In this document: positions 1,544 to 57,765 of the stretch, one piece after another
Layout of the letters: every line of letters begins with the position of its first letter
Position numbering within the stretch: the stretch's first letter is position 1
NCBI RefSeq assembly: GCF_006345805.1
Contig: NC_043020.1
Span: 25,234,001-25,298,000, forward strand
Source of the DNA: Octopus sinensis
Lineage: Eukaryota
Reading direction: 5' to 3'
DNA: 64,000 nt
Made by a program: the position numbers and the translations under genes
Notes under the pieces: generated by a model
Told to the model about the DNA's origin: nothing
Database searches by the model: none
The model's input: the letters and a program-made list of their open reading frames with translations, nothing else

Positions 1544-3020
1544 AGTCCACTGTTTGCGCCTCGGCACCTGGAGGAACAAGCCGATATCGTCCAGTGTTGT
1601 TTTGGACACTGGACAGATGGTCCTGTTAAATTGCTTGGAGTTTGGGTTGGTTCAGACTCCCAGACGGAGAAAAATTGGAGCGAGGTAGTGACCAGGTAGA
1701 GCCATAGTTTGGGAGTGGTCCGAAGGCATCTTTTCTTGAAAGGGAGGGCGGAGGTGTACAGGTGTTTATAGCATCTGTAATCACACTAGCGCTCGACTGT
1801 CGTGCCTTGCCCCCGATTTTGTGGCTAAGCAAGTTGGATTCGACTCCTTTTCCGCTTTTGTGGAGGGAGGAAAGCCACTTGTAAGGCGCTCCGTGTGTTG
1901 CCAGGAACCACTAAAGGGTGGGCTGGGGATGCCTTGGTTAATGATGCGCAGGCATGCGCTGAGACTGAGACATCTCTGGTTTCACCTGGAAGGTGATAAG
2001 GTGGGGAGTCCGCTGGCAGATAATTTCTTCCCGCAACCGGACTCTATGGAGAGATTTAAACCCGGTTTCATTAAAAGACGGAACCTGACTTTATGGCAGA
2101 AAGAGTGCCGACAGGCACTCTGGCTGATCCACAAGATAGGCAAAGCCGGCTGGGAATACCACCTCGACATTTTATAGAAGGATGGTAGAGGCAAAAAATG
2201 ACGACGTCCTAAGAGGGGCTCTGGGGTTCGATGAGGATCAACTATCCGACCTGTTTAAGAAGACTTTCAAGCCGGGGTATTTGGACAATTACCAAAAATC
2301 CCTGACTTGGCAGTGCTATAGGAATGCTCTACCTGTTCGCGATAAGTTATATAGGCATGGAATGTCAGTGCCACCGACATGTCCAAGATGTGGGTTGGAC
2401 GATGAAACCGTCCAGCCGTTTTGTACATTGTCAGGAACTGTCAGGCTTAATAAGTTACGTAGAACACGTGTTGTCGCATCTGGACGAGTACAGCTATCGG
2501 CTGGTTATCTATATAAAGATGATACCGCCAGCTGGACTCTCAAAGAAGGTGAGGCTTGTTTTCACTGCTACGGTGGCAGTAACTGAAAAGGTGTGTGTGG
2601 AGAACTAGATTGGAAGGTTTGGTGTCAGGAACCTTTGTCTCTGGATATGGTATGTTAAAATACTTCAGATACCATCTAAAGAGCAAGATGGATTTAGAGA
2701 AGAGGAACCTGACACAGAAAAAGTATGTGAATCGATGGAAGGATGTGATAAAAAAAGGTGGGTGTGAGTAACCTGCTTGGTCATCATGAAGGGAGAAAAT
2801 AGTCTCTGGGCTCTTAGGCTGTCGGGTAAGAATCCTGACTGTGATATACCTAGCTGGCCAAATTCATTTTTAATTTAAAAAAAAAAGGAGAAAAGTAAAG
2901 TCTAGTATCATAATCAATAATCAACATATGTAAATATCAAACGAACAACGTAAACTTTTTGTAATTATGTTTTGTTGTAAGTCTATCTCTGTAAGATTTT
3001 ATAATCATAATAAAGATTAG
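1544..3020 (+). mobile_element. Tx1/L1-clade LINE 3' portion (ORF2 C-terminus, frameshifted)
   Basis: VKLLGVWVG, PLKGGLGMP and WQCYRNALPVRDKLYRHG..CPRCG..DETV (zf-RVT-like). Homologous to the ORFs at 22503-23129 and 59133-59894. AATAAA at 3009-3014. Confidence 0.85.
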
Positions 3021-3680
3021 GAAGCGACACCTACTGGCTGGCTACGCTGCATTGAAAAGGGGCAATACTCCGAAACGCGTCTGTAGCTGCCGGTCAAGTA
3101 GTGTGGAGCGACTGACCTCCTTGTTCGAAGGTTATATGGATACAGTTTGTGTATCAAATAGCTAAATTAAGGCGATGGCTCATGGAGCTAATAAGCGGAC
3201 AGCTTTTTTCTTATTTTTATAAGAATGCCATATTAGTATGGCGATAACTATTATTTCCGGGAACGCTGCCGCTGTTCTCTTTTAGAGAGACTTAGTTATT
3301 TTAATATTCTATTATTGAAAACAAGTGGATGTATTCCACCGAAACTAGGTAAATAAAACCATCGAACAGAGATGTCGGAAGCGACACCTACTGGCTGGCT
3401 ACGCTGCATTGAAAAGGGGCAATACTCCGAAACGCGTTGTAGCTGCCGGTCAAGTAGTGTGTGCAGCGACTGACCTCCTTGTTCGAAGGTTATATGGATA
3501 CGTTTGTGTATTCAAATAGCTAACTTAAGGCGATGGCCTCATGGAGCTAATAAGCGGACAGCTATTTTCTTCTTTTTATAAGAATGCCATATTAGTATGG
3601 CGATAACTATTATTTTCCGGGAACGCTGCCGCTGTTCTCTTTTAGAGAGACTTAGTTGTATTTTAATACTGATATTATAT
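3021..3680 (+). repeat. About 1.8 units (period about 357 bp) of the HHR-containing retrozyme-like repeat
   Basis: Same sequence as the 49989-51463 units. HHR motifs at 3046-3087 and 3403-3443. Ends in (TA)n. Confidence 0.9.
3046..3087 (+). ncRNA. Type I hammerhead ribozyme, U3-A8 variant
   Basis: GCUGCA UUGAAAA GGGG CAAUA CUCC GAAAC GC GUC UGUAGC. Confidence 0.8.
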
Positions 3681-3684
3681 ATAG

Positions 3685-35780: not shown

Positions 35781-36078
35781 CTGGACCCGTGGAAATTGTA
35801 TAGAGACAGATATTGCCTTTAATTCACATGTGCAGGTTTGTCACTCACCGTGTCACTCTGATACAGTTTGAGAATTACACTAAAATGACATGCGTGCCTG
35901 TGGAGTACTGAGCTACTTACAGGTTAGTTCAAAAATTCAAACAACTGAATGGCCGACATCGAAACTGATGTGAAAGCATCATTTCGCATACACGTACATA
36001 CACACACGTACACACAAGTACACAGAAACGCATGCACATACACGGACGTATATGTACATGTATATATATATTATATAT

Positions 36079-36138
<60 letters not shown>

Positions 36139-36169
36139 TAATATGTGTTATATTATATATTATATATAT

Positions 36170-36898
36170 ATTAATAGTTATCGCCATACTAATATGGCAG
36201 TCTAAATATAAGACTAAAGCTGTCGCTGATTAGCTCCAAGAGGCCACCGCCTCTAGCTAGCTATATGACACACGAACCTGCGTCCATTATAAACCTTCGA
36301 ACAGGGGAGGTCAGCCGCTTCACCTTGCTAGTCAGACATCTGCAGATATGTGTCAGGGTTGTTGCCCTTTATCAATGCAGCGTAGTCAGAACCAGCAGGT
36401 GTCGCTACTGACGTCTGTTCGAAGGTTTTATTTACCTAATTACAGTGGAATATTATTAGTATGGCGATAACAATTAATATCCAGTAACGCTGGATATTAA
36501 TCTCCTTTAGAGAGACTTAGTAATTTTAATATTTCTATTATTGAAAACAAGTGGATGTATTCCACTGTAACTAGGTAAATAAAATCTTCGAACAGATGGT
36601 CAGTAGCGACACCTGCTGGTACTGACTACGCTGCATTGATAAAGGGCAACAACCCTGAAACATGTCTGCATATGTCTGACTAGTAAAGGTGAAGCGGCTA
36701 ACCTCCCCTGTTCGAAGGTTTATAATGGACGCAGGTTCGTGTGTCATATAGCTAGCTAGAGGCGGTGGCCTCTTGGAGCTAATCAGCGACAGCTTTAGTC
36801 TTATATTTTGACTGCCATATTAGTATGGCGATAACTATTATATCCAGTAACGCTGCCGTAATCTCCTTAGAGAGACTTAGTAATTTTAATATTTCTAT

Positions 36899-36900
<2 letters not shown>
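36170..36900. repeat. Divergent subfamily of the retrozyme-like repeat: inverted partial copy (36170-36455, minus) joined to about 1.2 direct units (36455-36900, plus)
   Basis: Shares GCCATATTAGTATGGCGATAAC, AGAGAGACTTAGTAATTTTAATATTTCTATT and GAAAACAAGTGGATGTATTCCAC with the 50 kb array. (TA)n on both sides. Confidence 0.9.
36631..36671 (+). ncRNA. Type I hammerhead ribozyme, U3-A8 variant
   Basis: UGCA UUGAUAA AGGG CAACAA CCCU GAAAC AU GUC UGCA; stem III palindrome ACAUGU. Confidence 0.8.
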
Positions 36901-36941
<41 letters not shown>

Positions 36942-37387
36942 TATATAATATACATGTTATATATGTATATATATACATGTGTATAAATATATAAATATAT
37001 ATATATATATTGTTATATAAATAAATAATAATATATATAATCATGTGTATAAATATATAAATATATATATATATACATGTGTATAATATATAAATATATA
37101 TATATATATATATACATGTGTATAAATATATAAATATATATATATACATGTGTATAAAATGTATATATGTATATGTATATATGTATATGTATATATATAT
37201 GTATATATATATATGTATATATGTACATATATATAAGGTATATATATATTACTATATATATATATCTATACACATAAATATATAAATGTATATATGTATG
37301 CATATATATATATATATATATTATATATATTATATATTTATATATATATATATATAATATATTAATATATATATATATATAGATATA

Positions 37388-37547
37388 TGCGCCAGTGGCT
37401 GTGTGGTAAGTGCTTGCTAACCAGCCACATGGTTCCGGGTTCAGTCCCACTGCGTGGCATCTTGGGCAAGCATTTTCTGCTATAGCCCCAGGCAGACCAA
37501 TACCTTGTGAGTGGATTTGGTAGACGGAAACTGAAAGAAGCCTGTCG

Positions 37548-49803: not shown

Positions 49804-50104
49804 AGTATGTATGTATGTATGTATATGTCTGAGTTTTTCCCCCCAACATCACTTGATAACCGATGCTGGTGTGTTTACGTCCCTGTAACTTAGTTCGGCA
49901 AAAGAGTCTATAGAATAAGTACTAGGCTTACAATGAAATTAGTCATGGCGTCGATTTACTCGACTAAAGGCGGCGCTCCAACATAGTTACTTAGTAATTT
50001 TAATATTTCTATTATTGAAAACAAGTGGATGTATTCCACCGAAGCTAGGTAAATAAAACCTTTCAACAGAGATTGTCAGAAGCGACACCTACTGGTCTGG
50101 CTAC

Positions 50105-50146
50105 GCTGCATTGAAAAGGGGCAATACCCCGAAACGCGTCTGTAGC
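50105..50146 (+). ncRNA. Type I hammerhead ribozyme (U3-A8), copy 1
   Basis: GCUGCA UUGAAAA GGGG CAAUA CCCC GAAAC GC GUC^UGUAGC; predicted cut after 50140. Confidence 0.85.
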
Positions 50147-50466
50147 TGCCGGCCAAGTAGTGTGGAGCCACTGACCTCCCTTGTTCAAAGGTTATATGGA
50201 TACAGTTTGTGTATCAAATAGCTAACTTAAGGCGATGGCCTCATGGAGCTAATAAGCGGTCAGCTTTATTCTTATTTTTATAAGAATGCCATATTAGTAT
50301 GGCGATAACTAATATTTTCCGGAACGCTGCCGTTGTTCTCTTTTAGAGAGACTTAGTAATTTTAATATTTCTATTCTTGAAAACAAGTGGATGTATTCCA
50401 CCGAAGCTAGGTAAATAAAACCTTTGAACAGAGATTGTCAGAAGCGACACCTACTAGTCTGGCTAC

Positions 50467-50508
50467 GCTGCATTGAAAAGGGGCAATACCCCGAAACGCG
50501 TCTGTAGC
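50467..50508 (+). ncRNA. Type I hammerhead ribozyme (U3-A8), copy 2
   Basis: Identical motif; predicted cut after 50502. Confidence 0.85.
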
Positions 50509-50829
50509 TGCCGGCCAAGTAGTGTGGAGCCACTGGCCTCCCTTGTTCAAAGGTTATATGGATACAGTTTGTGTATCAAATAGCTAACTTAAGGCGATGG
50601 CCTCATGGAGCTAATAAGCGGTCAGCTTTATTCTTATTTTTATAAGAATGCCATATTAGTATGGCGATAACTAATATTTTCCGGGAACGCTGCCGTTGTT
50701 CTCTTTTAGAGAGACTTAGTAATTTTAATATTTCTATTCTTGAAAACAAGTGGATGTATTCCACCGAAGCTAGGTAAATAAAACCTTTGAACAGAGATTG
50801 TCAGAAGCGACACCTACTAGTCTGGCTAC

Positions 50830-50871
50830 GCTGCATTGAAAAGGGGCAATACCCCGAAACGCGTCTGTAGC
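50830..50871 (+). ncRNA. Type I hammerhead ribozyme (U3-A8), copy 3
   Basis: Identical motif; predicted cut after 50865. Confidence 0.85.
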
Positions 50872-51192
50872 TGCCGGCCAAGTAGTGTGGAGCGACTGAC
50901 CTCCCTTGTTCAAAGGTTATATGGATACAGTTTGTGTATCAAATAGCTAACTTAAGGCGATGGCCTCATGGAGCTACTAAGCGGTCGGCTTTATTCTTAT
51001 TTTTATAAGAATGCCATATTAGTATGGCGATAACTAATATTTTCCGGGAACGCTGCCGTTGTTCTCTTTTAGAGAGACTTAGTAATTTTAATATTTCTAT
51101 TCTTGAAAACAAGTGGATGTATTCCACCGAAGCTAGGTAAATAAAACCTTTGAACAGAGATTGTCAGAAGCGACACCTACTAGTCTGGCTAC

Positions 51193-51234
51193 GCTGCATT
51201 GAAAAGGGGCAATACCCCGAAACGCGTCTGTAGC
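51193..51234 (+). ncRNA. Type I hammerhead ribozyme (U3-A8), copy 4
   Basis: Identical motif; predicted cut after 51228. Confidence 0.85.
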
Positions 51235-51459
51235 TGCCGGCCAAGTAGTGTGGAGCGACTGACCTCCCTTGTTCAAGGTTATATGGATACAGTTTGTGTA
51301 TCAAATAGCTAACTTAAGGCGATGGCCTCATGGAGCTACTAAGCGGTCGGCTTTATCCTTATTTTTATAAGAATGCCATATTAGTATGGCGATAACTAAT
51401 ATTTTCCGGGAACGCTGCCGTTGTTCTCTTTAAGAGAGACTTAGTAATTTTAATATTTC

Positions 51460-51508
<49 letters not shown>

Positions 51509-57039: not shown

Positions 57040-57728
57040 CAGCTAAGGGTCAGACCCGATTCTGATTGGTCAACACGCTGATGACATCTAGTTCTGCTAG
57101 AATGGACAGGATACAAACAGGGGGCAGAGATTAGTCAGAATATTGATGACGTACCTTTCTGCTTGACTAGTCACCTAACAAAATACAGACAGGGGGCAGA
57201 GCTAATGCAGCTATAAGCCGTGATTGGGCAGAATCTTGATGACGTCCCGTTCTGCTTGACTAAGCCACCTAACGAAACGACTGGTCAAAACAGGATACAG
57301 ACAAGAGGCAGTTATAATACAGCGATAGGTCACGATTGGTCAGAATGTTGATGATGTCCCGTTCTGCTTGACTAAGCCACCTAACGAAAAGGGGCAGATC
57401 TAATACAGCTATAAGTCGTGATTGGTCAGAATCATGATGACGTACCGTCCTGCTTGACTAAGCCACCTAACGAAAAGGGGCAGATCTAATACAGCTATAA
57501 GTCGTGATTGGTCAGAATCATGATGACGTACCGTCCTGCTTGACTAAGCCACCTAACGAAACGACTGGTCAAAACAGGAAACAGACAAGAGGCAGTTATA
57601 ATACAGCGATAGGTCACGATTGGTCAGAATGTTGATGACGTACCGTTCTGCTTGACTAAAGCCACCTAACGAAACGATTGGTCAAAACGTTGATGACGTC
57701 ACGCTACGCTGGACTGACCACCTAACAG
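57040..57728 (+). repeat. Tandem 80-110 bp repeats with ATTGG (CCAAT) and TGATGACGT motifs
   Basis: About 8 copies of GATTGGTCAGAAT..TGATGACGT..CTGCTTGACTAAGCCACCTAAC. Confidence 0.9.
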
Positions 57729-57732
57729 GCAT

Positions 57733-57765
57733 TATAAAACCCGAACAATTCACAAAACTCACTAG
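57733..57765 (+). promoter_or_regulatory. Putative Pol II core promoter (TATA + Inr) in the PLE pseudo-LTR
   Basis: TATAAAA at 57733-57739; TCACT with the A at 57761, 28 nt after the TATA start. Confidence 0.5.

Follow-up and report, generated by a model that had tools for sequence, protein, structure and literature searches.

The described elements closest to the locus analysed here are non-LTR retrozymes and Penelope-like elements (PLEs). Mussel retrozymes of 350–390 bp self-cleave and accumulate as circles, and PLEs were named as their likely mobilisers (PMC7229834); arguments on the identity of the mobiliser have hitherto come from co-occurrence (PMC7229834) and from trees (bioRxiv 2026.07.22.740005). 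The hammerheads of PLEs have the U3-A8 variant of the core and a palindromic helix III, depend on dimers and show low activity in vitro (PMC4209133). PLE insertions combine 5' truncation, a partial tandem, a head-to-head inverted copy and a tail on one arm, as illustrated in PMC8557442 (including the legend of its Fig. 2) and PMC3846280. AT-rich DNA is the substrate cut by a purified Penelope enzyme, which then extends both strands; synthesis begins at two neighbouring sites of the RNA, and the stretch between them is the “tail”. In this purified system, mutation of the hammerhead did not prevent insertion, and the ribozyme depended on protein (PMC11167929). Insertion into transposons, RNA genes, microsatellites and satellites is known for LINEs of the Tx1 clade (PMC4494074), which also become relevant below.

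The locus lies in the window, i.e. the whole 64,000-nt stretch of Octopus sinensis DNA that was analysed, and consists of a minus-strand arm (36172–36452) placed head-to-head with a plus-strand arm (36454–36901), with a single extra base (36453) between them. The arms are identical at 271 of 283 positions (96%) and are bordered by (TA)n on both sides, at 36049–36171 next to the short 3' end of the inverted arm and at 36899–37388 next to the long 3' end. The plus arm comprises 1.2 units: an 88-nt partial tandem unit (36454–36541, unit positions 281–364) and a full ~363-bp unit (36538–36901) of the subfamily which we call B, reaching the long fixed 3' end. The inverted arm is 5'-truncated and covers unit positions 21–303. 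A previous sequence-only reading recognised this arrangement together with its TA flanks, but took the minus copy to be simply partial; in fact, its outer end is the second fixed 3' end of the family, ~60 nt short of the long one. The full unit has a GC content of 0.41 and its longest ATG-started frame is 58 aa. We consider that the locus is probably an insertion of a non-autonomous Penelope-like retroelement (a non-LTR retrozyme with predicted self-cleavage), copied by PLE enzymes into (TA)n. The unit is called non-autonomous because it is devoid of an ORF for reverse transcriptase (RT) and GIY-YIG endonuclease.

The plus-strand unit contains a type I hammerhead motif (36631–36671) composed of the U3-A8 core UUGAUAA (36636–36642), the 4-bp stem II AGGG/CCCU (36643–36656), GAA (36657–36659), the stem III palindrome ACAUGU (36660–36665) and C17 (36666), with cleavage predicted between 36666 and 36667; in the predicted fold it occupies the tip of a long rod (36582–36721). 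The core, stem II and palindrome were found exactly as first described, and the unit is 81% identical to the other subfamily of the window. The mutated core reported for the inverted copy was likewise located: its minus-strand motif (36340–36380) carries two core substitutions, A14>C (36352) and G16.2>A (36347). In the plus copy, stem I is shortened by a private G>T at 36671, and its predicted probability is 0.01 compared with 0.87–0.96 in 24 of the 26 subfamily copies scored, making this copy one of the two exceptions in which the value does not exceed 0.5. With substitutions in both hammerheads the locus copy is probably dead, and the cleavage assay earlier proposed for 36600–36700, a monomer with the private stem I substitution, would probably yield a false negative. 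There is one motif per orientation at the locus and no two consecutive complete ones. A search of the whole window against Rfam at the gathering threshold gave no match, which is not evidence against an atypical hammerhead.

The unit represents a dispersed non-coding repeat family of ~363 bp that includes several subfamilies. The genome, which comprises 2.72 Gb and is rich in microsatellites, contains 1637 exact matches to a degenerate hammerhead pattern of the family (0 for the reversed control) and 176 to the exact subfamily B motif (control 0), while two further short motifs of the family, downstream and upstream of the hammerhead, gave 3452 and 2126 matches, respectively. Two other family insertions are present in the window, 79–82% identical to the subfamily B locus and both composed of plus-strand subfamily A units: the first (3020–3681) starts at a LINE target duplication (3020–3036), and the second (49989–51468) has 4.1 tandem units, the long 3' end and then (TA)n. 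Subfamily A forms tandem arrays, reaching seven or more units in our maps; subfamily B is mostly 1–2 units long, with three same-strand motif pairs 358–362 bp apart among the 100 matches listed. Two or more consecutive units with complete hammerheads are present in the family in both forms, as subfamily A arrays and subfamily B pairs. Three further hammerhead families are distantly homologous to the locus unit and can be aligned with it; their cores are UUGACGA, CCGAUGA/CUGAUGA and CCGACGA (loci L386, L388–L397, L365, L420–L424, L427, L430, L441, L442 and L449), and the F2 unit measures ~345–375 bp. As to RNA, assembled contigs of four runs cover 28–30 of 30 bins and were given no weight, such contigs being unable to reveal ends, strand or circles. 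A literature search of incomplete coverage found no report of this retrozyme family, which may already be catalogued.

Some observations stand apart from these results. A conserved hairpin at 36824–36853 of the window, as well as its subfamily A equivalent, includes an ATG that in subfamily A opens a 38-codon frame across the tail and the unit junction (read by eye) and in most B copies meets an early stop; this frame is possibly a relic of a PLE ORF start. At another locus (L003:1100–1900), the two flanks are reverse complements of each other beyond (TA)n, owing either to inverted duplication of the flank or to an assembly artefact. A tandem repeat of complex build (86/112/284 bp), in which CCAAT-like and TGACGT motifs recur, occupies 57129–57740 of the window and may resemble an LTR enhancer array.

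The anatomy of insertions was mapped in the first 50 listed on contig C1, picked by the motif downstream of the hammerhead, one fragment shorter than 30 bp being dropped. Head-to-head copies combining one long (~364) and one short (~303) end make up 32 of the 50, other head-to-head copies 4 and single-orientation copies 14. In this sample, 81 of the 86 outer 3' ends fall at unit positions ~364 or ~303, and a TA run follows the 3' end in 55 of 86 cases vs 3.6–4.5% of background 20-mers; the 5' starts are scattered over unit positions 1–338, which indicates variable 5' truncation. Among the best 30 matches to subfamily B, 18 are single-orientation and 12 head-to-head (7 long plus short); TA was seen at 24 of the 41 3' ends but at none of the 18 5' ends. 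Candidate target site duplications (TSDs) of 10–14 bp accompany 8 of 126 insertions. The family thus displays 5' truncation, partial tandems, head-to-head inverted copies, a tail on one arm, a (TA)n or AT-rich target and an occasional TSD; fixed symmetric terminal inverted repeats of the MITE or class II kind were not seen in the insertions mapped. The suggestion that an inverted 5'-truncated segment with a partial tandem is of the Penelope type is therefore upheld by the two fixed 3' ends and by the 32 long-plus-short copies. DNA-transposon or satellite junctions and randomly mutated cores were looked for as well, and the copies show Penelope-type junctions and conserved cores. By analogy with the purified enzyme, the long and short arms may be products of its two start sites.

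For analysis of the hammerhead, we took the first 100 listed matches of the upstream motif and dropped 10 that were interrupted (judged outside the motif), obtaining 90 copies in six subfamilies of at least two members, picked without regard to the ribozyme; core conservation in loci fetched by the hammerhead pattern or by best identity is selection-biased and was excluded. None of the 12 core columns differs between the six subfamilies vs 56 of the 190 columns outside (Fisher p 0.018), p values being indicative only since copies within arrays and subfamilies are not independent, and sliding a mask of the same shape gave 1 of 130. The U3-A8 pair is present in 90 of 90 copies. N7 takes all four letters, according to subfamily, and the stems stay paired as they change from one subfamily to another: G-U, A-U or G-C is seen at pair 3 of stem I, and G-C, G-U or A-U at pair 1 of stem II. 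Across 15 distinct motifs from the four distantly homologous families, stem I is paired at 87 of 90 positions (0.60 with swapped partners) and stem II at 57 of 60 (0.75 with swapped partners). Stem III is palindromic at 56 of 56 positions at lengths of 6, 8 and 10; in this comparison, its length was the one that paired stem I best, and two letters at either end of it were constrained. The 3-8 pair is C-G, U-G or U-A, in five motifs each. These data indicate that the unit contains a type I hammerhead conserved beyond chance.

Folding of the circular unit gives z-scores of −4.9 (B) and −6.8 (A); since the antisense strands fold nearly as well (−5.2 and −4.8), this score gives no choice between strands. 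In the predicted fold of the monomer, stem III consists of 2 bp and 2 nt only. Between subfamilies A and B, the stem III swap and the swap on one side of stem II represent CpG-type transitions, and at 5 of the 14 CpG sites present in subfamily A, subfamily B has TG/CA; the comparison of A with B alone is weak because part of the covariation is of this type. The independent support for the ribozyme that had been claimed is consequently weaker in the two subfamilies of the window than was stated, and the strong support comes from the panel of six subfamilies and four families.

The same genome possesses elements with frames of ~780–800 aa in which RT motifs (read by eye) are combined with a GIY-YIG domain and which we take to be Neptune-like. 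Similar to the retrozyme, these autonomous elements have two fixed 3' ends, ~110 nt apart (~60 nt in the unit), and (TA)n flanks; long and short terminal arms in opposite orientation occur at 5 of 20 long-ORF loci. Pfam did not recognise the RT of the long-ORF relatives, and Atlas gave leads only (PF26215, 38%). They carry a C3-G8 hammerhead-like motif, and their long 3' UTR is their own. The retrozyme unit adjoins the endonuclease in 1 of its 30 nearest copies and in none of the 20 long-ORF copies, and in the other 29 of the 30 the sequence goes on into another 3' UTR. No match to the autonomous termini was obtained with a profile of the four retrozyme families, and no homology to an autonomous pseudo-LTR (pLTR) was found in 50 loci of one endonuclease lineage (the genome has 19,456 candidates). 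Machinery for mobilisation is present in the genome, and the master of the retrozyme was not identified among the lineage examined. The proposal of PLE-mediated mobilisation is therefore sustained as far as junction anatomy goes, and it rests on that anatomy because no autonomous PLE with a homologous end was found.

The exceptional case is L081:868-1335 (G000:C1:41653937-41654404), where a GIY-YIG end is joined directly to a 5'-truncated subfamily A unit, resulting either from a template switch or from an insertion. An endonuclease joined to subfamily A was considered as the master element and rejected as a one-off, with 1 of the 30 nearest copies. Three other loci (L123, L124 and L125) have Penelope-like ORFs with long asparagine-rich linkers and 3' UTRs of 1–1.8 kb that end in a C3-G8 hammerhead-like motif with a long stem II. 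Asparagine-rich inserts are described in rotifer PLEs (PMC3846280).

Two interrupted copies of the family run into the same foreign sequence, a LINE. It is ~5.35 kb long (intact in L333) and has an ORF1 with a CCHC knuckle and a 1140-aa ORF2 frame in which Pfam finds APE endonuclease, RT and zf-RVT domains. Its best solved relative is LINE-1 ORF2p (E 3e-66 vs 4e-23 for R2), and by its domains and this structural match it would be an L1-group, Tx1-like element. The window retains the 3' part of such a LINE on the plus strand of a subfamily A unit (1544–3019), its 5' part being cut by an assembly gap (N, 1444–1543). Among the best 30 LINE 3' ends, 28 pass into a retrozyme unit, always at an identical base, and the remaining 2 pass into another LINE after the same duplication; the best 30 5' ends are distributed likewise. 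With six more copies, three on target and three off, 33 of 36 are on target in all. The target is fixed 32–38 nt upstream of the hammerhead core and used in the same orientation, and the duplication comprises 16–17 bp; among 21 full copies, 20 have the 16-mer in duplicate. In the locus under study this site is empty in both arms (36601–36616 on the plus strand, 36395–36410 on the minus strand). Independent insertion of the LINEs is indicated by three observations: a 5'-truncated copy (L364) has the same junction, LINE–LINE tandems share one duplication, and LINE variants in one array are mixed and are not each other's closest relatives.

Sister LINEs (~85% aa identity) have a target or unit of the three other hammerhead families at the 3' end in 18 of 19 cases and at the 5' end only in the remaining one, and a tree of the ORF2 3' region, from which L396, L354 and the ORF1-only loci were left out as too short or non-matching, groups the LINEs by host retrozyme family. 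Hammerhead targeting was found in none of seven distant LINEs (~78%) with a located 3' end, one more end not being located. These distant families have 17-bp duplications other than the retrozyme target (L402 and L405) and tandem copies (L401 and L403), and they appear to be site-specific too, in a repeat without a hammerhead. On either side of one distant LINE (L398, oriented ~797 and ~6494) stands the same C3-G8 hammerhead motif in antisense. A head-to-head array on another contig (G000:C3:72500900-72529900, L366–L369) carries a full LINE in each of its five retrozyme units, in mixed variants, and so is saturated though only about 40–70 LINE 3' ends were found genome-wide. Spreading of the LINE and unit as one composite is not supported in this array, given the mixed variants. 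Some LINE variants share host variants between loci, and partial co-mobilisation or conversion may have taken place. A literature search, again incomplete in coverage, found no report of a LINE targeting retrozymes.

Subfamily B is occupied by a different element. Genome-wide, 51 junctions join the LINE end to the target, 36 of A-type and 15 of B-type, which rules out that subfamily B escapes the LINE by its two target-base differences. All 15 B-type junctions are preceded by an ORF1-only element (one by only ~70 bp of it) and none by LINE ORF2. This element is ~1.7 kb long, has a single frame of ~450 aa and no ORF2, shares the last bases of the LINE and is surrounded by the duplicated 16-bp site. 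Its frame is 28% identical to LINE ORF1 over 235 aa (E 3e-31), and no nucleotide match was found to the seven LINE copies tested; because of these two values it is not a recent deletion derivative of the tested LINEs. Of the best 30 3' ends of the ORF1-only element, several rows of which share a locus, 17 lie at this family's target, including 4 tandem ones. Other hammerhead families account for 5, a target-like 16-mer and then a sister-LINE 5' end follow another 4, and 4 are off target.

According to the mechanism which we favour for the retrozyme, tandem copies would be transcribed, and cleavage after C17 would be brought about by two hammerheads joined at their palindromic stem III; the 363-nt monomer set free in this way would be circularised. 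A Penelope enzyme would nick both strands of AT-rich DNA, and on each strand reverse transcription would start at one of two fixed sites that lie ~60 nt from each other, which would account for the long arm and the short one. Copies of more than one unit would arise when the enzyme carries on past a full turn of the circle. The LINE endonuclease would select its fixed site in the unit, and the ORF1-only element may borrow this endonuclease. More tentatively, we suggest as a possibility that a LINE lineage with an ORF1-only hitch-hiker has become specialised on retrozymes, given its sense insertion at a homologous site in four families, which tracks their divergence; it might rely on transcription of the host and be excised from the co-transcript by the flanking hammerheads, in the manner of R2, which uses its own ribozyme in rDNA. 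If true, this would be a four-tier system running from the Penelope enzyme through the retrozyme and the LINE to the ORF1-only element.

Other origins have to be weighed against this one. The same element could be mobilised by the Penelope enzyme from an uncleaved linear multimer, the hammerhead being protein-assisted or serving another step and no circle being formed. This agrees with the lack of effect of hammerhead mutants on insertion in vitro and the need of cleavage for protein (PMC11167929), with the low in vitro activity of minimal PLE hammerheads (PMC4209133) and with the short stem III of the monomer (just 2 bp and 2 nt), and insertions of 1.2 units with any start fit a circular template, but also a multimer. 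We nevertheless hold it to be unlikely, as the core is conserved and the stems covary across four families, the palindromic stem III of three lengths suggests dimer cleavage, and the mussel repeats of 350–390 bp self-cleave and form circles (PMC7229834). It is very improbable that the copies are solo pseudo-LTRs, i.e. extreme 5' truncations of an autonomous PLE yet to be found. Such an origin would explain the one locus joining a GIY-YIG end directly to subfamily A units and would accord with the derivation of retrozymes from pLTRs in bioRxiv 2026.07.22.740005, but the different 3' UTR following 29 of the 30 nearest endonuclease copies is against it, and copies that extend past the unit start enter the end of the previous unit, in arrays of up to seven or more.

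Viewed in isolation, the two 281-bp arms of the locus look like the long terminal inverted repeats of a MITE-like DNA transposon placed in a TA run, and the tandem arrays of subfamily A recall a locally amplified satellite. The unequal outer ends (long vs short), the inversion point that varies between copies, the single orientation of 14 of the 50 insertions, the shortness and fixed ends of arrays and the scattering of copies over many large contigs leave very little room for either origin. Hardly any credence can be given to the L1-group LINE as a mobiliser of retrozymes (a SINE–LINE partnership) rather than their parasite, even though the association is tight (33 of 36 LINE copies, and a LINE in every unit of the five-unit array). 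The LINE is situated within the unit and bordered by a target duplication in 20 of 21 cases, and the unit ends are unlike the LINE 3' end. LINE variants in one array are not each other's closest relatives, the 5'-truncated L364 has the same junction, and LINE–LINE tandems share one duplication. Penelope-mediated copying of a retrozyme, with the LINE as its parasite, remains the preferred reading.

Compared with known systems, the family shares with non-LTR retrozymes a non-coding monomer within 170–400 bp (363 here, 350–390 in mussels), a GC content below 45% (0.41 here), a type I hammerhead in each unit, tandem arrays and co-occurrence with PLEs (PMC7229834; bioRxiv 2026.07.22.740005). It differs from them in the U3-A8 core and palindromic minimal stem III, which are those of PLE hammerheads, and the full PLE junction signature of its insertions is not described for retrozymes in the available parts of the same two sources. 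With endonuclease-positive PLEs it shares the 5' truncation, partial tandem, head-to-head inverted copy and tail on one arm, as well as a bias towards (TA)n, a TSD in some cases, the U3-A8 core and a helix III that is palindromic (PMC8557442, PMC4209133, PMC3846280, PMC11167929). Unlike those PLEs, as far as these papers portray them, the unit has no RT or endonuclease frame and its tail is ~60 nt vs 30–40; its hammerhead lacks the extra base after A9 and has a 4-bp stem II. It is also distinct from the autonomous PLE family of this genome, to the termini of which it has no detectable homology. The family shows the features of a non-LTR retrozyme with Penelope-type insertions and predicted self-cleavage, an element of a known kind, and is not an autonomous PLE, MITE or satellite. 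Its junctions carry the two-start-site signature known biochemically from the Penelope enzyme (PMC11167929), so an assay of trans-mobilisation becomes straightforward, and the families offer a natural C-G / U-G / U-A series at the hammerhead 3-8 pair with stem III palindromes of three lengths.

The LINE resembles Tx1-clade elements (Tx1L in Tx1D, Tx1-Mar, Keno, Kibi/Koshi; PMC4494074) in its two ORFs, CCHC knuckle, APE-type endonuclease, RT and zf-RVT, and in one-site insertion into another repeat with tandems that sandwich the TSD; what sets it apart is the target, a homologous position of hammerhead retrozymes in four divergent families. It adds retrozymes to the targets of site-specific L1-group elements, and related endonucleases acting on different 16–17-bp sequences at one homologous position form a usable system for studying change of target specificity. 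The ORF1-only element is similar to HAL1 (half-L1) in its ~1.7-kb length, single ~450-aa ORF1-like frame, lack of ORF2 and possession of the last bases of the LINE, and unlike HAL1 (PMC5753468), it is site-specific for retrozymes. Taken alone, the retrozyme copy is ordinary for its kind; the new part is the pair of parasites, LINE and ORF1-only element, which occupy a fixed site in other copies of the family.
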